DNA of 18,673 nucleotides, from the IMG/VR virus record IMGVR_UViG_2617270979_000006, one strand, 5' to 3'. How positions within the stretch are numbered: the stretch's first letter is position 1; each line of letters begins with the position of its first letter. Shown piece by piece: positions 904 to 18,673 of this stretch. The translations under genes were made by a program, and so were the position numbers. Under the pieces are notes generated by a model. The model was not told the origin of the DNA and ran no database searches. It saw nothing but the letters and a program-made list of their open reading frames with translations. The stretch comes from a virus. Taxonomy: Duplodnaviria; Heunggongvirae; Uroviricota; Caudoviricetes.

Positions 904-2295
904 TTATGCTTCATGTTGCTTTTTGAGATCGCTTCTAGCATAGCTCCACTCAATAATGTTGTCGGGTCGTTGCTGATCGAAAAGGATACGGGATTCAATA
1001 CCATTACCTAAAAAGCTGGTATTCCCATCTACGTAAGAAGCTATCCCTTGTGAACCAACACGAAGAATATTTTCTAATGGCTGCTTTGTTCTTGCTGCAT
1101 CGCTAAGGAGATATAAACCCGGGTACGTTTTGTTAGCACGGTGAAAAAAAAGTTCATTGTCAAAACACATGACGATGATTATTTGTCCCGACATGAGATC
1201 GGAGAGCATTTCAGTTGGCAGATGCAAACTCATAAATGGTCGAGACAAAGGGTCAAAGAATGAATCATTTATATTCACAACAGGGCTTTTTATACCGAGA
1301 CTATCCATCCATCCATTGAAGGCAACAAAGCCCATTTCAGAATCACGGTACATACCTAAGAACAAACATTCATCAATAGTATCAATTGCCCAATTTTTTC
1401 CTCCGCGAATAATCTCCCACATTTTAACTAAGCGGTGGGTATAAAATTCAGACGGATGATCTATCTCATTGATTTTAACTTTAGACTGATGAAAGTTGTC
1501 AAAGCCCTCGCCAGTATTAATCGCCTCCAGAACATTCATGCCACGAATGATTTGCCTTTTTATGCGATTAAATTGCTTAACATCATTATCAGGCATATTG
1601 TTAATGAAGTTTTCTTCAAAGTGCGGACATTCTGAGATAACAGAAAATTCAGCAGCTTCATAAAGCTCATTATTCTTTTCACCTGTTTTAACTTCCACGA
1701 GCTGGAAGCCATCCAGTAGATTAAAGGTGACTAAATCTCCCACATGAACAAATGTGCTCATGTCAGAGACAATCGCTACGGAGTGTTTGTCCTGGTTGAT
1801 AAGATCGGCTGCGACCATAGAATCAATTATGTTATCTTCTGATAGATTGTCATTGCTTGCATTAATAGGTAAACGCCGCAAACTAGAGTGTTCTTCATCA
1901 AGAATGCTCCAAATTATTGAGTCAATACAACGGCGAAGAATAAGAATTTCAAATTTTTTTAAACTTATTTCATCAATACACTTTTCTTTATTTTCTTTAT
2001 CCTTGTTTCGATGGTGCTCTTTTTTTTCAGTTTCCAATCTTTTTATATCTCTCAGCCGAATAATAATCTCAAAAGATATGATTTTTTGTGAGTCTTTCCA
2101 ATTTTTGAGACAGGTTTCATACTCTGCAAGAAAATCCTCATCATTGGAAGGTAGTTCTTGAATTGGATTCCCTCCCCTTATCATTTTGGCAAGTGCATGC
2201 ATTAAAGATACATAATGAGGTGATAAAATTGTCCAAAACTTCCTAAACGGTTTGTACTTTTCAAGAAAAGTTGACTCATCAGTATAATTCATCAT
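904..2295 (-). CDS. Uncharacterised 463-aa protein, downstream partner of the AbiH-like gene; central D-x14-E-V-K motif suggests a possible PD-(D/E)xK nuclease core
   Basis: Long ORF in visibly AT-rich DNA. Track start is TTG at 2301; the ATG at 2295 is preferred because GAGG lies 6 nt upstream. Lies 89 nt downstream of the AbiH-like gene on the same strand. Motif HVGDLVTFNLLDGFQLVEVK maps to 1687-1737. Lysine/glutamate-rich segment near the N-terminus. Confidence 0.7.
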   Translation of the reverse strand: MMNYTDESTFLEKYKPFRKFWTILSPHYVSLMHALAKMIRGGNPIQELPSNDEDFLAEYETCLKNWKDSQKIISFEIIIRLRDIKRLETEKKEHHRNKDKENKEKCIDEISLKKFEILILRRCIDSIIWSILDEEHSSLRRLPINASNDNLSEDNIIDSMVAADLINQDKHSVAIVSDMSTFVHVGDLVTFNLLDGFQLVEVKTGEKNNELYEAAEFSVISECPHFEENFINNMPDNDVKQFNRIKRQIIRGMNVLEAINTGEGFDNFHQSKVKINEIDHPSEFYTHRLVKMWEIIRGGKNWAIDTIDECLFLGMYRDSEMGFVAFNGWMDSLGIKSPVVNINDSFFDPLSRPFMSLHLPTEMLSDLMSGQIIIVMCFDNELFFHRANKTYPGLYLLSDAARTKQPLENILRVGSQGIASYVDGNTSFLGNGIESRILFDQQRPDNIIEWSYARSDLKKQHEA

Positions 2296-2384
2296 AACCA
2301 AACCTCATTCCTCTTATCTATTTTCCTCAAGGTATAAAATACCAGCCTTTTTTACATAATTATAGTTATAATATGAAGTCTCAT

Positions 2385-3254
2385 TCAGATATCTTCATAC
2401 TGTACGTAAGAAATATTTGAGCCTCTGATACCATAATCTTCTAAACTGCCTGATTTTTTCTCACCTCTATATAAAGCAACTATCCATCGAGCATTTTCTT
2501 GGATGCTTTTATTTATTTCAGTAAAGTATTCACCGTCAACTTCGGCGAGCGAGTGGCCTAAAACGATGACCTCGTCCACATTTTTAAGCGATGAGAAAAA
2601 AACGTTTTCTTCTTTAATTATGTCTTCGCTGGGCTTGAATGTATTACCGAAGTATTCGTTTATTCTGTCGTATGCCTCTGCTATTCTTGTATCTTGATCC
2701 GGTCCTATATATGGATTTAGTGACTTTTCCACCCTAAAACTATGACCAAGTATGAGATCGTCATCGTAACTACAATTGCCGTGAATATGTATGATTTGCT
2801 CGTCTGGAACGGCATAGATCTGCTGCAAGGTATTTGTATAATTAAATGAAAAATAGATGCTTTCTCTTGGTATGGGCGGGATGTATTGCTTAGGATTGTA
2901 AGCATCGGCTATGTTAATCCCTTTAACCCAATCAGCGAATTGCTCCTTCAAACGAGCTGACAGCATTTGTGTGATTTTATTTACTTCATATTGGTAATCG
3001 TGATGATAAGCATCGCTCCAATCATCGGTATTGTATGAAGCCAAAAATATCTCACTGTTTTGAAGGATAAGCTCATAATCAATTTCACCTAAAGCATTTT
3101 CTAACTCATTCCACTCGTCCCCAGCAGGAATGTATTCTTCTATCGCGTCATATAGATCTTGGTCATTTTTTTCTACATACGACTTAAAGTGCTTGTATCC
3201 TGTTGGTAAGCCATGACGCATGTCAAATCCATTTCCTATTATGTAAAGCCTCAT
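2385..3254 (-). CDS. AbiH-family abortive infection protein (289 aa)
   Basis: N-terminus MRLYIIGNGFDMRHGLPTGYKHF matches the hallmark IIGNGFD-x-HGL motif of the AbiH family (Pfam Bacteriophage abortive infection AbiH), with further FNYTNT, HIHG and LGHS motifs. Start moved from track position 3305 to the internal ATG at 3254, which has AAGGGA about 7 nt upstream. AT-rich codon usage. Confidence 0.75.
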   Translation of the reverse strand: MRLYIIGNGFDMRHGLPTGYKHFKSYVEKNDQDLYDAIEEYIPAGDEWNELENALGEIDYELILQNSEIFLASYNTDDWSDAYHHDYQYEVNKITQMLSARLKEQFADWVKGINIADAYNPKQYIPPIPRESIYFSFNYTNTLQQIYAVPDEQIIHIHGNCSYDDDLILGHSFRVEKSLNPYIGPDQDTRIAEAYDRINEYFGNTFKPSEDIIKEENVFFSSLKNVDEVIVLGHSLAEVDGEYFTEINKSIQENARWIVALYRGEKKSGSLEDYGIRGSNISYVQYEDI

Positions 3255-3357
3255 TGTTTTTCCCTTAGTCGAATTGTATAAAAATACTAACATGGCCTGC
3301 TCCACGTTGACTACTATCCCCTCCTTTGAGTAATGCCTTCATCAGATGTAACAACAT

Positions 3358-3654: not shown

Positions 3655-3812
3655 TTGATTTTATATTGGCGAGGTGACGTGAGTTAAGTAGAATTGCTGC
3701 GGGTGCTTGAGGCTATCTGCCTCAGGCATGAACACCAAAGGCAGATAGAGAAAAGCCCCAGTTAACATTACGCGTCCTGCAAGACGCTTAACATTAATCT
3801 GAGGCCAATTTC

Positions 3813-4025
3813 ATGCTAGACACATGTAGGTTAGCCTCTTACGTGCCGAAAGGCAAGGAGAAGCAGGCTATGAAGCAGCAAAAGGCGATGTTAATCGCCC
3901 TGATCGTCATCTGTTTAACCGTCATAGTGACGGCACTGGTAACGAGGAAAGACCTCTGCGAGGTACGAATCCGAACCGGCCAGACGGAGGTCGCTGTCTT
4001 CACAGCTTACGAACCTGAGGAGTAA
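3813..4025 (+). CDS. Mok-like leader reading frame, in-frame N-terminal extension of Hok
   Basis: MLDTCRLASYVPKGKEKQA precedes the Hok Met in the same frame, the same arrangement as E. coli MokC/HokC (MLNTCR...) as I recall it. Confidence 0.55.
   Translation: MLDTCRLASYVPKGKEKQAMKQQKAMLIALIVICLTVIVTALVTRKDLCEVRIRTGQTEVAVFTAYEPEE
3870..4025 (+). CDS. hokD: Hok/Gef family type I toxin (HokD/RelF-like, 51 aa)
   Basis: MKQQKAMLIALIVICLTVIVTALVTRKDLCEVRIRTGQTEVAVFTAYEPEE: single transmembrane helix plus conserved Hok C-terminus. AAGGAG lies 9 nt upstream of the ATG. Followed by a hairpin (4033-4054) and a terminator. Confidence 0.9.
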   Translation: MKQQKAMLIALIVICLTVIVTALVTRKDLCEVRIRTGQTEVAVFTAYEPEE

Positions 4026-5813: not shown

Positions 5814-5830
5814 TTTTGTGGAGTAAGTTG

Positions 5831-6208
5831 ATGCGTGATATTCAGATGGTTCTTGAGCGTTGGGGGGCATGGGCGGCTAATAATCATGAAGATGTGACCT
5901 GGTCGTCCATTGCCGCCGGTTTTAAGGGATTAATTCCTTCAAAAGTAAGATCTCGTCCGCAATGCTGTGACGATGACGCGATGATCATTTGTGAATGTAT
6001 GGCTCGCCTGAAAAAAAACAACAGCGATTTACATGATTTATTGGTGGACTATTATATCGGCGGCATGACTTTTATGGCGCTTGCACATAAGCATGGGCGA
6101 TCTGATTGTTGGGTTGGCAGGATGCTCCAGAAAGCTGAGGGCGTAGTGGAGGGCATGCTGATGGTGTTGGATCTCCGATTGGAGATGGATGCTGATTGTT
6201 CGAAATAA
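5831..6208 (+). CDS. quuD: Late-gene antitermination protein Q (QuuD-like, 125 aa)
   Basis: [35 protein letters not shown]... matches my recollection of DLP12 QuuD. ATG at 5831 has GGAG 7 nt upstream; the track start is a TTG at 5816. Confidence 0.8.
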
Positions 6209-6306
6209 TTAAAGGAAAAGTTGCTGTCTGATTTTCATTAGTCTAACATTTTAAATGTTGGAATCGCAACGTAGTTATTATCATATAACAGCTTGTTTCC
6301 TGATTT

Positions 6307-6335
6307 AGCCAGCCTCCCCAAAGGCTGGTTTTTTT
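6307..6335 (+). terminator. tR'-like intrinsic terminator downstream of Q (end of a short late leader RNA)
   Basis: Stem agccagcc / ggctggtt (with one G.U) and loop tccccaaa, followed by a run of 7 T. Position right after Q is where lambdoid phages carry pR'/qut/tR'. Confidence 0.55.
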
Positions 6336-6363
6336 CTAATAAGTATCATTTCGGGTGGGGATT

Positions 6364-6888
6364 TTATTGTTTAACCCATAATAGTTCATTGACATTGAAT
6401 CCCAACTTTTGAGCGGTACGCACATAGTCTGCTTTTACATTATCTGGAATAGTTTGGGTCCTTGCCAGAATCCATAGGTATTCTCTGTTCGGACCACTGA
6501 CAAGAGCATACTTATACTCATCATCCAGTTTGATTACATTATAGCCACCATAGAAGGGGCCAAAAAACGAAACTTTCAACGCTGCAGTTTTAGTATCTCC
6601 AGTAAAGTATGCTTTACCTTCGCTCTCGCTCCATTTGTTTTTCGTTGGATCGTATCCACGGTTAAGTACGCGAATCCCTCCGTCGTTCCGTTTTTCATAA
6701 GTAGCGCTGACCTGTTCCAGACCACGTTCGAACCAGTTCTCGAGGCGAGCTATTTCATACCATTTTCCGAGGTAGCGGTTGGCGTCAAAATTTGTAATCG
6801 GCTGCACACCTTTAGGTGGTGTCGGGGCCTTACATGCTATAAGAGTGAAAGAGAGTGCAATGCCAGTCAACACAGGCCATAACTTCAT
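6364..6888 (-). CDS. blc: Bacterial lipocalin Blc-like outer-membrane lipoprotein (174 aa)
   Basis: MKLWPVLTGIALSFTLIACKAPTPPKG: signal peptide with lipobox LIAC. Strong similarity to E. coli Blc as recalled (NFDANRYLGKWYEIARLENWFERGLE..., KAYFTGDTKTAALKVSFFGPFYGGYNVI). AGGA 7 nt upstream of the start. Confidence 0.85.
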   Translation of the reverse strand: MKLWPVLTGIALSFTLIACKAPTPPKGVQPITNFDANRYLGKWYEIARLENWFERGLEQVSATYEKRNDGGIRVLNRGYDPTKNKWSESEGKAYFTGDTKTAALKVSFFGPFYGGYNVIKLDDEYKYALVSGPNREYLWILARTQTIPDNVKADYVRTAQKLGFNVNELLWVKQ

Positions 6889-7080: not shown

Positions 7081-8040
7081 ATGATAAAAAAACCTGTGAT
7101 TGGGATCAGCGGTTGTTTGGGCGGTTCTGCTGTTCGTTTTGATGGTGGTCACAAAAGAGATGACTTTTTAATGGACAAATTAGTGGAATGGGTAACATTC
7201 AGACCAGTATGTCCGGAAATGGCTATAGGGCTGCCAGTTCCGCGTCCTGCTCTACGACTTGTGCGCTCGAAGCAAGGAAATATACGGATGTGTTTCAGCC
7301 ACGACCAGAATGAGGATGTGACAGAGAGAATGACAGAGTTTAGTCGTTCTTATATGGACAAATTAAAGGATGTATCGGGGTTTGTGGTTTGTGCTAAATC
7401 TCCCAGCTGTGGCATGGAGCGCGTGCGTGTCTATGATGAAAATGGTAATCGAGGTCGTAAAGATGGAGTGGGACTATTTACGAGCACTTTGATGGAAAAG
7501 TTTTCCTGGCTACCGGTTGAGGAGGATGGGCGATTACATGATCCAGTGCTTCGTGAGAATTTTATTGAAAGAGTTTTTGCTTTGCATGAGCTCAATCACC
7601 TTTACAAGGAGAAATTATCAAGAAGAGAGTTATTAGCTTTTCATAGTCGTTATAAGCTTCAGTTGTTGGCGCATAGCCAGGCAGGCTATAAAGATATGGG
7701 ACCATTTGTGGCTGCAATACACGAGTGGGCGGACCTTGAATCATACTTTGAGGTGTATCGTGATAATCTGATGGCGATTCTCAGAAAACCAGCATCACGT
7801 AAAAATCACACGAATGTGCTGATGCATATACAGGGGTATTTTAGTAATTACTTAAGTACACGCCAGCGTAAAGAGTTGAGCGAGGTTATACTTAACTATC
7901 GCTTTGGCACATTGCCTCTTCTTGCGCCGTTGACTCTGCTGAAGCATTATCTGGGTGAGTATCCTAATGATTACTTGCTTACACAGAATTACTTCGATCC
8001 CTATCCGGAAGAACTGGCTCTAAGACTGAAGGTGAATTAA
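7081..8040 (+). CDS. TudS (DUF523) - DUF1722 fusion protein, RudS-like putative thiouridine desulfidase (319 aa)
   Basis: N-terminal domain carries the three conserved Cys expected for the TudS [4Fe-4S] site (GISGCLGG, RPVCPE, CAKSPSCG). C-terminal half resembles YbgA/DUF1722 (HSRYKLQLLAHSQ, HTNVLMHIQGYFS). Strong RBS GGGGGAGG. Confidence 0.75.
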   Translation: MIKKPVIGISGCLGGSAVRFDGGHKRDDFLMDKLVEWVTFRPVCPEMAIGLPVPRPALRLVRSKQGNIRMCFSHDQNEDVTERMTEFSRSYMDKLKDVSGFVVCAKSPSCGMERVRVYDENGNRGRKDGVGLFTSTLMEKFSWLPVEEDGRLHDPVLRENFIERVFALHELNHLYKEKLSRRELLAFHSRYKLQLLAHSQAGYKDMGPFVAAIHEWADLESYFEVYRDNLMAILRKPASRKNHTNVLMHIQGYFSNYLSTRQRKELSEVILNYRFGTLPLLAPLTLLKHYLGEYPNDYLLTQNYFDPYPEELALRLKVN

Positions 8041-8446
8041 CTGTATGCGATATCATCTGAAAGTGATGAGTTCCTGTATGCAGGATATTTACAATCGTAA
8101 AAACTACGCTATGATGCTCATAGTGTCAGTTTTTATAAAAATCCTGTTCACGCTAAAGAAAACATTGAGATGCAATTTAATGTTGGTAAACATACCAGCC
8201 CCAAAAGATTTTATTCAATCTGTTTTTATATGAAGATATTTCAAGTGAATATAAAGAGCATATAATATTATTATTGCACGCAGCTATTATAATATAACAG
8301 ATTAGTTTAATGATTTGTTTTTTGTGAGTTAAACACATGGTTTTATAGTTGTGATGCAATGAGATTTTCCTTATTGTTGAACTGGCGAATATTGATTTTC
8401 CACCTATACTTACCTGGTGTAACCCCAATGATATCAGGTGGATAAT

Positions 8447-9160
8447 ATGTCATACATATGTTCTATCATTTTGGTGTTGAACTCGTTTGGTGTCCGAATT
8501 GGTAAAGAAGATATTTTGTTTAAAAAAGGAAATGCTGTCCTCATTGAATACAATTTAAAAGATCTTTTTTCGTCAAATACAGATCATCTAATGATCGTAG
8601 ATGTTGAGGAGAAAACAGTTAATGATTTCTTTAAAAACTACACACTCTCACCTTTTTCTGTAAGAAGGTTTTATCCGTCATACTTGATAGTAGAATGTGA
8701 AGATTTTTCATTGTTAAAGAACTTGGTTGCATGCTTGAATTGTGATAGCAAAACCGTGGATGTAGTTAGAAATCAAATATCACTTGCATGTCTTGCTGTC
8801 TTATCTTCAGAGAAAATAGTGCAAAGTTTTTTGTTCGGAAGTCTTAATAACTTAGGTTGTAAAGTTAAGGCTATTATTCACTCGGATATCTCAGCGTCAT
8901 GGAGACTTTGTGATATATCTTCAAGATTATATATGAGCGAGAGTTTGTTAAAAAGAAAATTAAAAGACGAAGGATTATCGTTTAGTAAATTAATTCTTGA
9001 AGAACGAATGATGATGGCGCAAAGATTATTGATCTACAGTAACCATACTGTCGGCAAGGTGGCGGGAATATGCGGGTATGACAATGCATCATATTTTGTA
9101 AGTGTTTTTAGAGGATATTTTGGTGTGCCTCCGCACCAATATTTATCAAGATTTTCTTAG
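8447..9160 (+). CDS. AraC/XylS-family transcriptional regulator, AppY/GadX/YdeO-like (237 aa)
   Basis: C-terminal double HTH (SESLLKRKLKDEGLSFSKLILEERMMMAQRLL, GYDNASYFVSVFRGYFGVPPHQY). N-terminus MSYICSIILVLNSFGVRIG...FKKGNAVL parallels prophage-encoded AppY as recalled. AT-rich gene preceded by about 400 bp of AT-rich DNA. Confidence 0.8.
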   Translation: MSYICSIILVLNSFGVRIGKEDILFKKGNAVLIEYNLKDLFSSNTDHLMIVDVEEKTVNDFFKNYTLSPFSVRRFYPSYLIVECEDFSLLKNLVACLNCDSKTVDVVRNQISLACLAVLSSEKIVQSFLFGSLNNLGCKVKAIIHSDISASWRLCDISSRLYMSESLLKRKLKDEGLSFSKLILEERMMMAQRLLIYSNHTVGKVAGICGYDNASYFVSVFRGYFGVPPHQYLSRFS

Positions 9161-9228
9161 AAGATATGATGTGATGGCATTTTATAAAGTTATTTTTTGA
9201 AGTGTAAGATTATACGATATTTTTAGCT

Positions 9229-9260
9229 ACGCCAGAATAATTGCTGGCGTTTTTCTTTTT
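9229..9260 (+). terminator. Intrinsic terminator after the AraC-like gene
   Basis: Stem acgccag / ctggcgt with 8-nt loop, followed by tttttcttttt. Confidence 0.6.
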
Positions 9261-9350: not shown

Positions 9351-9566
9351 ATGAAATCCATGGATAAGTTAACAACGGGCATCGCCTACAGCACCTCTGC
9401 AGGCAGTGCTGGCTACTGGTTTTTACAGTTGCTCGATAAAGTCACGCCCTCACAGTGGGCGGCAATAGGTGTATTGGGTAGTCTGGTATTTGGCATGCTG
9501 ACGTATCTGACAAATCTTTATTTCAAGATTAAAGAAGACAGGCGTAAGGCTGCGAGAGGAGAGTAA
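9351..9566 (+). CDS. Phage-21-type class II holin / pinholin (S21, EssD/EssQ-like, 71 aa) with dual-start motif
   Basis: [71 protein letters not shown], with Met1 and Met4 starts typical of the antiholin/holin pair. RBS GGAGGTGAGG. The upstream extension of the track ORF (9267) is rejected. Confidence 0.85.
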
Positions 9567-10906: not shown

Positions 10907-11269
10907 GGTAATATTAAATCGGAACATTTACATCGCGGAATGTAAAATTTAAATAAAAAGGACTCTTCCATGAGCCAAAATTCCTGAAATCTTAAGGGTA
11001 AGATAAAAGGTCTTAATCAGAATGACACGTTATTATTAATAAATAAAGCTATTCTTTCATTGCTGTGTTTTTCTTTACAAAAGTAATCCTTGCTATGGGT
11101 GGTTAATCATGCGTTAATGGTGTTCTGGTTTGTTACAAATTTATCTGAAGCAGTCATTGTTATAATTTTATTATTTGTACCTCTTGAGATTTCCTTGTTG
11201 GTTTTTCTCTCTGATATTTTTTTTCGGACCATTCTGCCCAAGGGCTAATTTCTTCAAAAGGTAATAATT
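10907..11269 (+). promoter_or_regulatory. Long AT-rich leader/promoter region of the csp gene (candidate cold-shock 5' UTR)
   Basis: About 360 nt of ORF-free AT-rich DNA with a perfect TATAAT near 11160 and TTGCTA-N18-TTAATG near 11085-11115. CspA-family genes are known to have long structured 5' UTRs. The transcription start is not determinable by eye. Confidence 0.4.
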
Positions 11270-11482
11270 ATGTCTAACAAAATGACTGGTTTAGTGAAAT
11301 AGTTTAACCCTGAAAAAGGTTTTGGTTTCATCACGCCGAAAGATGGCAGCAAAGATGTGTTTGTCCATTTCTCAGCAATTCAGAGCAACGATTTCAAAAC
11401 ATTAACTGAGAATCAGGAAGTTGAATTTGGTATTGAGAACGGACCTAAAGGTCCTGCCGCTGTTCATGTAGTGGCGCTTTGA
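11270..11482 (+). pseudogene. cspI: CspA-family cold-shock protein gene (CspI-like) interrupted by an in-frame amber codon at codon 11
   Basis: Reads [72 protein letters not shown]-stop. The TAG at 11300-11302 replaces the invariant Trp (TGG) of the WFN motif. No downstream in-frame Met, so no full-length product without suppression. Confidence 0.8.
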
Positions 11483-11681
11483 GGTAGACAATATTACAAA
11501 CCATATTCACTTTAGATGCCCGTGTTGTCATGGTTCCCAGTATAGAACATCATCTTTTGATGTTTCTGACATGAATCCTTTCGGGGCAAAATGTATCTTT
11601 TGTAAATCAATGATGATTACATTTGATAATATTTCACAATACTTAAATGCCAGCCGTCTGTCGTTGGATTTAAAAAAGTGA
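11472..11681 (+). pseudogene. Zinc-ribbon small ORF (YdfK/YnaE-like, by recollection) lacking a start codon for its conserved N-terminal part
   Basis: Open frame ...FRCPCCHGSQYRTSSFDVSDMNPFGAKCIFCKSMMITFDNISQYLNASRLSLDLKK with two Cys pairs (CPCC, CIFC). No ATG/GTG/TTG between the upstream stop (11469-11471) and the internal ATG at 11571. Confidence 0.35.
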
Positions 11682-13930: not shown

Positions 13931-15556
13931 ATGGGTTTTTCATCAGCCCGAAATTTGGGAAGGGACATATCGGCAGGATTTTCCCCACCACGTCGCATGC
14001 CGATTTCGGAGGCTGTTAAAAAATTCATGCGTGTTCCCAAGGGGGCTGGTAACTCGGTGCCATGGGATCCTGAACTGACACCCTACATCATTGAGCCCAT
14101 GAACTGCCTGGCATCGCGTGAATACGATGCGGTGATTTTTGTTGGTCCTGCGCGAACAGGGAAGACCATTGGTCTGATCGATGGATGGATTGTCTATACC
14201 ATCGTTTGCGATCCTTCGGACATGCTCGTTGTGCAGATGACCGAAGATAAGGCCCGCGAGCATTCTAAAAAGCGCCTCGACAGAACGTTCAGAAGCAGTG
14301 CGGCGGTAAAGAAAAGAATGAGTCCACGTCGTAACGACAATAATGTCCATGATAAGACGTTCAGGGATGGCTCGTTCCTTAAAATTGGTTGGCCCTCGGT
14401 CAACATTATGTCGTCGTCGGATTACCGGTTTGTCGCCTTAACCGATTACGACCGTTTTCCGGAGAATATCGACAGCGAGGGTGATGGTTTCTCCCTGGCC
14501 TCAAAACGTACCACCACATTTATGTCCGCCGCGATGACTCTGGTGGAGAGCTCGCCGGGACGTGACATCTGCGACAGCAAATGGCGACGTAAGTCGCCTC
14601 ATGAAGCGCCACCGACGACTGGTATTCTTTCCCTTTACAATCGTGGTGACCGCCGCCGCTGGTACTGGCCATGTCCGCACTGCGGTGAATATTTTCAGCC
14701 AGCTATGGATGCCATGACCGGCTACCGTAATGAACCGGATCCCTTTAAAGCCAGTGAGGCGGCGTATCTACTTTGCCCACACTGCAGCGGCATTATCACT
14801 GCGGAGAAAAAGCGTGAGCTCAATAGTGCAGGAGTCTGGTTGCGTGAAGGTCAGGTCATTGATCGTAACGGCAACGTTTCCGGTGAACCGCGCCGCTCCC
14901 GTAATGGCAGCAAGGATAAGGAACGCGAGCTTACCATTCAGCCAGGCATTATTTACGATGATCTGAAACCCGGCGAAGAAATCGGAATGGTGAAGTCGGA
15001 TCGCCCAAATCCTAACCTTGAAACTTTTCGTAATGGTCAGTTGCGTGCCGTGGCGGCGGGCAGTCGTCTGAGTTTTTCCAGTACAGCGCGCAACTATAAC
15101 GGCACTTACAGCGCCCAGCGTCAGGAGCTGGTTGAATCCACTGATGGCTACCTGATCCTGCAGGACTGGTTTATTGGTGCCGTCACCCGTCCGATGTATC
15201 GTGCCTGGCTGAAACAGGCTGTGGCATCCGGTGTTATCAGGCTACCCCGCGATCTTGACCTTTCTTCACTGTATACCGCGGTGTATTCCGGACCGGTGAT
15301 GCCGTGGATTGACCCTGTTAAGGAGGCTGAGGCCTGGAAAATCCAGATTCGTGGTGGAGCGGCGACAGAATCAGACTGGGTACGTGCTGGTGGTCGTAAT
15401 CCGGATGATGTCAAACGTCGGCGCAAGGCCGAAATTGATGAAAACCGCAAGCTGGATCTGGTATTTGATACCGATCCGGCCAGTGATAAAGGAGGCAGCA
15501 GTGCCGCAACGAAACGACAGGAGCCGCAGCACACCGACGACCAGTCCGAAGAATAA
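13931..15556 (+). CDS. Terminase large subunit GpA-family ATPase domain, with a C-terminal portion that looks portal-like (possible in-frame terL::portal fusion)
   Basis: Walker A VIFVGPARTGKT; GpA-type zinc-finger region WYWPCPHCGEYF...LLCPHCSGI, collinear with lambda gpA N-terminal half as recalled. C-terminal about 200 aa (SFSSTARNYNGTYSAQ...PWIDPVKEAEAWKI...) lacks nuclease motifs and resembles lambda-type portal C-termini. RBS GGAGG. Confidence 0.7.
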   Translation: MGFSSARNLGRDISAGFSPPRRMPISEAVKKFMRVPKGAGNSVPWDPELTPYIIEPMNCLASREYDAVIFVGPARTGKTIGLIDGWIVYTIVCDPSDMLVVQMTEDKAREHSKKRLDRTFRSSAAVKKRMSPRRNDNNVHDKTFRDGSFLKIGWPSVNIMSSSDYRFVALTDYDRFPENIDSEGDGFSLASKRTTTFMSAAMTLVESSPGRDICDSKWRRKSPHEAPPTTGILSLYNRGDRRRWYWPCPHCGEYFQPAMDAMTGYRNEPDPFKASEAAYLLCPHCSGIITAEKKRELNSAGVWLREGQVIDRNGNVSGEPRRSRNGSKDKERELTIQPGIIYDDLKPGEEIGMVKSDRPNPNLETFRNGQLRAVAAGSRLSFSSTARNYNGTYSAQRQELVESTDGYLILQDWFIGAVTRPMYRAWLKQAVASGVIRLPRDLDLSSLYTAVYSGPVMPWIDPVKEAEAWKIQIRGGAATESDWVRAGGRNPDDVKRRRKAEIDENRKLDLVFDTDPASDKGGSSAATKRQEPQHTDDQSEE

Positions 15557-17389: not shown

Positions 17390-18673
17390 ATGGATTTCCA
17401 GTTATATTCGCTCGGCGCAGCGTTAGTGTTTCATGAAATATTTTTTCCTGAATCATCAACGGCAATGGCGTTAATTTTGGCAATGGGAACCTACGGTGCA
17501 GGTTATGTGGCGCGTATTGTCGGAGCATTTATTTTCGGCAAAATGGGCGACAGAATAGGGCGTAAAAAAGTGCTCTTTATTACCATCACCATGATGGGGA
17601 TCTGTACCACCTTAATTGGTGTGTTACCGACCTATGCACAGATTGGTGTTTTTGCCCCCATCTTGCTGGTGACGCTGCGTATTATTCAGGGGTTGGGTGC
17701 AGGTGCGGAAATTTCCGGTGCCGGTACGATGCTGGCGGAATATGCACCAAAAGGTAAGCGCGGAATTATCTCCTCATTTGTAGCTATGGGAACTAACTGC
17801 GGAACCTTGAGCGCAACGGCAATCTGGGCCTTTATGTTCTTCATTCTCAGTAAAGAGGAACTGCTGGCGTGGGGATGGCGTATACCGTTCCTGGCGAGCG
17901 TTGTCGTGATGGTCTTTGCTATCTGGTTACGTATGAATCTGAAAGAAAGCCCGGTCTTTGAGAAGGTTAATGACAGCAACCAACCCACAGCAAAACCTGC
18001 ACCTGCTGGTAGCATGTTCCAGAGCAAATCCTTCTGGCTGGCAACAGGGCTGCGTTTTGGTCAGGCGGGTAACTCCGGGTTAATTCAGACTTTCCTTGCA
18101 GGCTATTTAGTGCAGACGTTATTGTTTAACAAAGCAATTCCAACAGATGCATTGATGATTAGTTCGATTCTCGGCTTTATGACCATTCCGTTCCTTGGTT
18201 GGTTATCCGATAAAATTGGTCGCCGGATCCCGTATATTATTATGAATACCTCCGCGATTGTGCTGGCATGGCCAATGCTTTCTATCATTGTAGATAAAAG
18301 CTATGCCCCGAGCACCATTATGGTTGCACTGATTGTGATTCATAACTGTGCGGTGCTGGGATTATTTGCTCTGGAAAACATTACCATGGCAGAAATGTTC
18401 GGCTGTAAAAACCGCTTTACCCGGATGGCTATTTCTAAAGAAATTGGTGGTCTTATCGCTTCCGGTTTTGGTCCTATCCTGGCGGGTATTTTCTGCACCA
18501 TGACGGAATCCTGGTATCCGATCGCCATTATGATCATGGCATATTCAGTAATTGGTTTAATCTCTGCGCTGAAAATGCCAGAGGTGAAAGACCGTGATTT
18601 AAGTGCGCTGGAAGACGCTGCGGAAGATCAACCGCGTGTTGTAAGAGCTGCGCAACCTTCCAGAAGTCTGTAA
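17390..18673 (+). CDS. ydfJ: MFS metabolite:H+ symporter-family transporter YdfJ, N-terminally truncated at the prophage junction (427 aa)
   Basis: Typical MFS motifs (GKMGDRIGRKK, GWLSDKIGRRIPY). The ORF begins in the middle of what should be TM1 (aligns to the W-x-DF-x-LYG motif region of ShiA/KgtP-type symporters) and is bounded by an in-frame TGA at 17384-17386. Length matches E. coli K-12 YdfJ as recalled. Confidence 0.85.
   Translation: MDFQLYSLGAALVFHEIFFPESSTAMALILAMGTYGAGYVARIVGAFIFGKMGDRIGRKKVLFITITMMGICTTLIGVLPTYAQIGVFAPILLVTLRIIQGLGAGAEISGAGTMLAEYAPKGKRGIISSFVAMGTNCGTLSATAIWAFMFFILSKEELLAWGWRIPFLASVVVMVFAIWLRMNLKESPVFEKVNDSNQPTAKPAPAGSMFQSKSFWLATGLRFGQAGNSGLIQTFLAGYLVQTLLFNKAIPTDALMISSILGFMTIPFLGWLSDKIGRRIPYIIMNTSAIVLAWPMLSIIVDKSYAPSTIMVALIVIHNCAVLGLFALENITMAEMFGCKNRFTRMAISKEIGGLIASGFGPILAGIFCTMTESWYPIAIMIMAYSVIGLISALKMPEVKDRDLSALEDAAEDQPRVVRAAQPSRSL

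Follow-up and report, generated by a model that had tools for sequence, protein, structure and literature searches.

The window analysed here, an 18,673-nucleotide (nt) stretch of a lambdoid Escherichia coli prophage at the Qin site (IMG/VR record IMGVR_UViG_2617270979_000006; all coordinates are those of the whole window), carries a gene for an AraC/XylS-type regulator of 237 amino acids between the antiterminator gene Q and a P21-type holin gene (Table 1). The initial annotation of this DNA had proposed an intact AraC-family regulator, and this is borne out by the open frame and by matches to the Pfam families HTH_18 (E=3.1e-16; 59.9 bits against a cut-off of 33.6) and HTH_AraC (E=5.9e-11), which place the protein in the AraC/XylS family. 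It had also described the gene as late-region cargo with its own terminator, lying between Q and the holin gene. The Pfam assignments of both flanking genes and the hairpin after the regulator gene agree with this, with the correction that genes for a lipocalin and a YbgA-like protein separate the regulator from Q. We consider it probable that the gene product is a working transcription factor for lysogenic conversion, belonging to the PatE/Psr branch of prophage regulators within the GadX/GadW/YdeO/AppY group.

Table 1. Features of the regulator locus and its surroundings in the window
Feature	Position	Strand	Evidence and remarks
Antiterminator Q gene, start of the late region	5816-6208	+	Pfam PF06530 (Phage_antitermQ), E=2e-50; RefSeq "antiterminator Q family protein" in a 99.9%-identical locus
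Post-Q leader with candidate late promoters and a tR'-like terminator	6209-6340	+	Sequence inspection
Blc-like outer-membrane lipocalin gene (blc), first cargo gene	6364-6888	-	Pfam Lipocalin_2, E=7.5e-43; NCBIfam Blc subfamily, 312.6 bits against a cut-off of 267
YbgA/TudS+DUF1722 gene (ybgA; 2-thiouracil desulfurase-like domain), second cargo gene	7081-8040	+	Pfam PF04463, E=5.8e-40; PF08349, E=9.4e-40
AT-rich non-coding gap of 406 base pairs (bp), upstream of the regulator gene	8041-8446		Composition and alignment
Distal sigma-70-like match, TTTACA-16-TATGAT	8088-8115	+	10/12 consensus; 2 variable positions in 28 across four cassette variants
Likely core promoter of the regulator gene	8382-8410	+	-35 CTGGCG (8382-8387; family consensus TTGGCA), 17-nt spacer, -10 TATACT (8405-8410)
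Shine-Dalgarno sequence AGGTGG	8436-8441	+	Unchanged in 5/6 aligned family members; GGGGGG in PatE
AraC/XylS regulator coding sequence, 237 amino acids	8447-9160	+	Pfam, NCBIfam, AlphaFold2 model, dN/dS
Intrinsic terminator of the regulator gene	9229-9260	+	7-bp GC-rich stem, 8-nt loop, T-run
P21-type holin gene (EssD-like), first lysis gene	9351-9566	+	Pfam PF04971, E=6e-34; RefSeq essD

The reading frame is open from a GTG at 8438 (240 amino acids) or an ATG at 8447 (237 amino acids) to the stop codon at 9158-9160. The ATG is the likely start because AGGTGG lies 5 nt upstream of it and because RefSeq gives the 237-residue form in genomes that are 99.9% identical. The terminator downstream, ACGCCAG-N8-CTGGCGT followed by TTTTTCTTTTT, has a calculated energy of -10.8 kcal/mol and lies about 90 nt upstream of the holin start; terminator-like sites in the region number 7 against 2.5 expected. 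The hairpin is kept in the related alleles of 85% and 76% identity, and a similar one follows the gene of a 50% relative. The GC content is 31.0% in the gap before the regulator gene and 33.2% in the coding sequence; the window as a whole has 42.6%, and the neighbouring genes have 43-47%. The gene thus has two features of a moron, its own terminator and a deviant GC content (0.32 vs 0.43-0.47 in the flanks) between conserved phage genes.

Three parts make up the protein: a beta-rich N-terminal domain (residues ~1-85), a linker formed by helices and, at the C-terminus, a domain with two helix-turn-helix motifs (~135-235). Its residues 1-231 align with positions 1-229 of 253 in the NCBIfam YdeO model (E=4e-32, 111.8 bits), far below the equivalog cut-offs for both YdeO (111.8 vs 348 bits) and GadX (91.1 vs 500 bits), and it is neither YdeO nor GadX itself. 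In a multiple alignment, it is colinear with PatE, PsrA, GadW, AppY and YdeO from the N-terminal "xCS[IV]I" motif (Cys5-Ser6) onwards, and the homology, including the N-terminal domain, extends over the full length that is typical of the GadX/GadW/YdeO/AppY type (~240-275 amino acids). Using BLASTP against reference proteins from strains K-12 and Sakai, we found the highest full-length identities with PatE (ECs_0287; 47% over 237 residues) and PsrA (ECs_1087, extended to its full frame; 38% over 237), followed by GadW (33% over 233), EnvY (31% over 223), AppY (30% over 238) and YdeO (29% over 230). GadX matches at 42% over the C-terminal 101 residues only, and YbcM at 22% over 125 residues. 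The identity to PatE is uneven along the chain: it is lowest in the N-terminal domain (34%) and rises to 64% for the DNA-binding domain and to 83% for the first helix-turn-helix region. The initial label "AppY/GadX-like" therefore holds for the type of protein, given the full-length colinearity, and not for the nearest characterised relatives, which are PatE and PsrA.

A phylogeny against AppY, GadX, YdeO and PsrA/B, as suggested by the initial annotation, was approached with a neighbour-joining tree of 14 sequences (distance method, 200 bootstraps) from which PsrB was left out. One clade (bootstrap 100) unites the window protein with its 85% and 76% alleles and with a 59% relative (P0013). 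The sister of this clade is PatE together with the 50% relative (P0015; bootstrap 100), and PsrA joins next (bootstrap 92). This PatE/Psr clade is monophyletic with respect to the chromosomal paralogues, and AppY and GadW form a separate clade. Orthology with AppY fails both on this grouping and on the 30% identity, and the values for PatE and PsrA are below the orthologue level; the true PatE clusters (P0017 and P0018) are 98% identical to ECs_0287 and only 46-47% to the window protein. Hence, the protein is a member of the PatE/Psr branch of the GadX/YdeO/AppY group and an orthologue of no named protein.

The AlphaFold2 model is consistent with this placement (mean predicted local distance difference test score 87, predicted template modelling score 0.80). 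Its DNA-binding domain superposes on that of GadX (3mkl) with a root-mean-square deviation (rmsd) of 1.2-1.5 Å and a template modelling (TM) score of 0.87-0.90. Whole-chain searches with Foldseek retrieved CsvR, Rns and ToxT (E 1e-10 to 2e-7, TM 0.40-0.46); the whole-chain rmsd is 14-16 Å because the domains are placed differently, and the identity is 17-20%. The sequence matches with ToxT extend into the N-terminal domain.

The regulator gene is under purifying selection: divergence between the window gene and its 85% and 76% alleles gives ratios of nonsynonymous to synonymous change (dN/dS) of 0.21-0.22 overall and 0.11-0.15 in the DNA-binding domain. Among 82 loci that are readable from the start codon, 80 are intact and encode 237-248 amino acids. 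The sampled window-type copies are intact in 30 of 31 cases, the exception (L039) being frameshifted. The 85% sister allele differs by a coding run of eight T (T8) at codons 39-41 (L009:6351-7081; 534 E. coli genomes). In complete E. coli genomes, this allele occurs with an exact T8 in 243 cases, with a frameshifting T7 in 239 and, at least once, with T6; at this position, the window allele has GATCTTTTTTCG and is without the slippery T8. A downstream restart in the frameshifted sister allele yields a 195-residue form that makes up a large protein cluster (P0012, 623 members). The T7 copies come mainly from clinical genomes of similar size, in which they occupy a similar position on the chromosome, and T8 copies occur in such genomes as well; the counts are compatible both with clonal pseudogenes and with slippage, and either may explain the pattern. 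The initial annotation had named frameshifts in relatives as a sign that the protein is non-functional, and this applies in part to the 85% sister allele and not to the window allele.

Of 5426 complete E. coli genomes, 974 (~18%) carry the regulator gene or one of its sister alleles. A species-level scan detected no close copy beyond Escherichia except on one 3.2-kilobase (kb) contig from a bin named "Candidatus Nanosynbacter" (L092, JARKOR010000151.1), where an 84%-identical copy is almost certainly due to bin contamination. Homologues are also present in the free phages IdasGreatGrand, Lambda_2G7a/1H12 and mEp332, in agreement with a phage- and prophage-encoded family. This widespread PatE/Psr-type member is new, and its anatomy fits the established picture of prophage-borne AraC-like morons.

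The initial annotation had described about 400 bp of very AT-rich DNA without open reading frames upstream of the regulator gene. The AT-richness is confirmed over the 406 bp, and the absence of frames is not, as mechanical open reading frames are present at 8045-8233 (+) and 8177-8428 (-). We rejected these as genes: their frames are broken in relatives by indels of 1 nt and 54 bp, and they are unannotated in RefSeq. Alignment of four cassette variants revealed three conserved blocks and a 54-bp insertion specific to the window at ~8201-8254. When the last 120 nt were aligned out to PatE, only a TTGGCA-like hexamer, the TATACT and the region of the Shine-Dalgarno sequence and start codon stayed fixed, with TATACT placed 17-18 nt after the hexamer across the aligned family. 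This footprint suggests that 8382-8410 is likely the core promoter of the regulator gene, with a predicted transcription start near 8417. The distal sigma-70-like match overlaps a hairpin (8106-8126) just after ybgA and may be either a distal promoter or the ybgA terminator. A palindrome at 8109-8123 (CTATGAtgcTCATAG) was considered as an operator and dismissed, as it is not kept in other alleles.

Two segments of the upstream region (8395-8405 and 8436-8446) form an 11-nt inverted repeat with 10/11 complementary positions, in which a CCACCT element pairs with the Shine-Dalgarno sequence; the repeat is kept in the 76% allele. We do not favour an RNA thermometer or another leader masking the ribosome-binding site and keep it as a low-probability idea only: folding gave weak z-scores (-0.2 and -0.7 in the window, -2.5 in L008), and the complementary sequence is absent from P0013, P0015 and PatE. 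This sequence falls in the spacer of the proposed promoter and would therefore not be part of the main transcript, only of transcripts starting further upstream.

The low GC content extends over 1.2 kb (32% GC, with a minimum of ~26% in windows of 200 nt). The related appY has been reported to be controlled by H-NS (PMC10057817), and psrA responds to the Hha-directed small RNA HnrS; H-NS silencing of the regulator locus is plausible from the AT-richness and these family precedents. In the whole window, we counted 21 matches to the H-NS motif against 33 expected. The HnrS study, which shows Hha/H-NS-linked control for psrA, does not bear directly on the window locus. No known RNA was detected within 8041-9260 using Rfam at the gathering threshold.

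Upstream of the cargo genes, a hairpin of 9 pairs (6307-6330) followed by TTTTTTT (6307-6336 including the T-run) lies about 100 nt past the Q stop codon. In lambdoid phages, the terminator of the short pR' transcript usually sits at such a post-Q position. By analogy, we infer that this hairpin and the candidate promoters are the equivalents of tR' and pR', which would place the blc-ybgA-regulator block ahead of the lysis genes within the late unit that depends on Q. The slot between Q and the holin gene is variable; its known cargo includes stx (Stx phages), psrA (Sakai Sp4) and cspB/cspF (K-12 Qin).

Taken together, these features suggest how the regulator may work. In a lysogen, it would be transcribed from its own weak sigma-70 promoter, and H-NS-type silencing across the AT-rich 1.2 kb would probably limit this expression. 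Upon induction, where the prophage is inducible, Q-modified RNA polymerase coming from after Q would read through the regulator gene and past the terminator that follows it, and so reach the lysis genes. The protein would bind DNA by its two helix-turn-helix motifs and activate host promoters, most likely those of the acid-fitness island (gadE/hdeA), leading to higher acid resistance and to knock-on effects on other regulons. PatE, PsrA/B and AppY, the only members for which activation of gadE/hdeA and acid resistance or repression of type III secretion is known, activate gadE/hdeA and acid resistance (PMC10877973, PMC10057817), and these targets are proposed because the first helix-turn-helix region and the DNA-binding domain are so similar to those of PatE, and PatE, PsrB and AppY act on gadE/hdeA.

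Several observations weigh against a host-directed conversion factor of this kind. Given the 47% overall and only 34% N-terminal identity to PatE, target and signal specificity may differ, and the strict linkage to blc and ybgA described below is compatible with a role confined to the locus instead of one across the host. In the sister allele, about 45% of the copies carry the frameshift, which implies that the function is dispensable in many lineages. The -35 element of the window is poor (3/6 consensus) and a promoter scan did not call the proposed promoter, while the high-affinity 10-mer H-NS motif (TCGATAAATT-like) has no match at two or fewer mismatches in 8041-8446. The prophage is defective, with a terminase-portal fusion and the ydfJ end, and Q-driven expression may consequently never occur in this strain. 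Finally, a literature search for a blc-ybgA-araC cassette or for the regulator accession found nothing, and the accession is uncited.

Comparison with characterised systems places the locus more precisely. PatE (Z0321/ECs_0287, from CP-933H/Sp1 of E. coli O157:H7) is the nearest characterised relative, is likewise prophage-borne and shares the -35/-10 footprint and the Shine-Dalgarno context upstream. However, the low N-terminal identity shows that the window protein is not a PatE orthologue, and patE sits at the end of a remnant prophage, whereas the window gene shares a Q-holin cassette with blc and ybgA. In addition, the activation of gadE/hdeA by PatE is experimental, whereas the window protein is known from sequence. 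Among PsrA and PsrB (Z1789 and Z2104; ECs_1087 in Sakai Sp4), psrA likewise occupies the late-region cargo slot after Q of Sp4 and has a proximal sigma-70-like promoter ~40 nt before its start codon, but the identity of its product to the window protein is 38% along the whole chain (53% within the DNA-binding domain), and the gene is flanked by transfer RNA genes and effector/Pch loci instead of blc and ybgA. Closer inspection of psrA in Sakai (ECs_1087, L006:18678-19391) showed that it is annotated with 195 amino acids although the frame is open from an upstream ATG (MVVVCSVIMV...); read from this start, the protein regains the conserved N-terminus, has ~237 residues and is colinear with the family.

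AppY (DLP12), GadW, GadX, YdeO and EnvY of K-12 have the size class and the two-domain layout in common with the window protein, and AppY is also prophage-encoded, but the identities are 29-33% (for GadX limited to the C-terminal 101 residues) and appY is located at the prophage end and not between Q and the holin gene. Rns, CsvR and ToxT are the best whole-chain structural matches and have a different genetic context. The lambdoid Q-S morons share with the locus the arrangement of one gene with a terminator, a deviant GC content and a predicted promoter of its own between Q/pR' and the holin gene, which would allow expression both in the lysogen and, by Q read-through, a second time. The window gene differs in belonging to a three-gene cargo block in which one gene is on the opposite strand, and in having a promoter that is inferred.

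Among the window, 85% and 76% alleles, at least 2.7 kb of upstream DNA was available for 75 copies; blc and ybgA were present in all 75, and 74 had the same Q type. The same blc-ybgA-araC cassette was identified in the free phages IdasGreatGrand and Lambda_2G7a/1H12. AraC-type regulators often control adjoining genes, and the regulator could be a local one that mainly controls blc and/or ybgA or its own promoter, perhaps sensing a lipid or fatty-acid ligand through an Rns/ToxT-like N-terminal domain. The linkage, the fold shared with the fatty-acid-binding regulators Rns, CsvR and ToxT and the lipid-binding nature of the lipocalin Blc all fit such a role, which we nevertheless regard as unlikely. 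The relatives P0013 and P0015 are encoded directly after other Q types without blc or ybgA, and PsrA and PatE also occupy the same slot or prophages without these genes; the clade is thus not dependent on them.

The synonymous divergence (dS) between the window and the cassette of the 85% allele (L042) points in the same direction. It is 0.05 for blc and ybgA and 0.33 for the whole regulator gene, and within the latter it rises from 0.12 in the N-terminal half to 0.76 in the DNA-binding half, close to the 0.66 of the holin gene. This jump implies a recombination junction inside the gene, i.e., ordinary lambdoid mosaicism judging from the sequence comparison, and argues against a tightly co-adapted three-gene unit and for mosaic co-travel. 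The PHROGs of the lipocalin gene and of the YbgA-family gene, which encodes a thionucleobase desulfidase-like enzyme, (2809 and 3275) are labelled "unknown function".

A silent or decaying passenger, that is, a relic in a defective prophage without present function, seems quite unlikely. The truncation of the prophage, the weak -35 element, the T7 copies of the sister allele (239 vs 243 with T8) and the frameshift in L039 would fit this explanation. On the other hand, the window copy has an unbroken frame and a good Shine-Dalgarno sequence, 30 of 31 window-type copies are intact, the dN/dS is low (0.21 overall and 0.11 in the DNA-binding domain), the window allele is without the slippery T8, and the gene is also encoded by free, complete phage genomes.

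It is improbable, too, that the regulator is the sensor of a co-inherited cassette of Blc, the YbgA/TudS-like enzyme and the regulator itself, responding to a lipid or fatty-acid signal via an Rns/ToxT-like pocket and acting on a target outside the acid-fitness island. Extra layers of control may be superimposed on the regulator: the sister allele may be switched on and off by T6/T7/T8 slippage, and the 11-nt complement of the ribosome-binding site may block translation of read-through or late transcripts. Lambdoid phages with other cargo in the slot, such as K-12 Qin and DLP12, lyse normally. It is very improbable that the gene modulates phage late or lysis genes or the lysogeny decision instead of host genes: its position directly upstream of the lysis cassette within the late operon would suit such a role, and PMC11879457 describes some prophage transcription factors as controlling both phage and host operons, but all characterised members of the branch (PatE, PsrA/B and AppY) act on host promoters, and we found no repeated operator-like motif common to the upstream region and the lysis-gene leader.

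In the window, the holin gene is followed by DUF1327, lysozyme and Rz genes, and many complete genomes match the central 1.2 kb at 99.9% identity. In these genomes, the RefSeq neighbours are hokD, rem, ydfU, antiterminator Q, lipocalin, YbgA family, "helix-turn-helix domain-containing protein", essD, ydfR, rrrQ, rzpQ and cspI. The "terminase" frame (13931-15556) consists of a gpA ATPase domain fused to a C-terminal portal fragment, and the end of the window (17390-18673) is the host major facilitator superfamily gene ydfJ. No complete genome was colinear with the whole window; the best ones cover 88% of it and span 26-27 kb. The prophage is a deleted, Qin-like remnant.

In its early region, we detected an AbiH abortive-infection gene (2385-3305, minus strand; Pfam E=8e-69, PADLOC AbiH) followed by a frame of 465 amino acids (904-2301, minus strand) without a Pfam or PADLOC match, and the two may form a defence module. 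The only Rfam matches in the window are the sok antitoxin RNA (3701-3875, 120 bits), which adjoins a hokD-like gene, and a cspA-type thermoregulator leader (11124-11509, 108 bits) preceding a cspI-like gene.

Despite its presence in about 18% of complete E. coli genomes, the regulator gene is labelled in databases only as "helix-turn-helix domain-containing protein" or "unknown function", the latter also in PHROG 1450, which it matches over the full length. The gene adds a member to a known theme and leaves the theme unchanged; of modest interest are the conservation of the three cargo genes as a block, the recombination junction within the regulator gene and the inactivation of about half of the sister allele by the T-tract polymorphism. 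If the protein acts like PatE, PsrB and AppY, it would be another widespread phage-borne input to the acid-resistance network, including that of commensal, livestock and multidrug-resistant lineages, and its presence, absence or frameshift state could explain differences in acid tolerance between strains.

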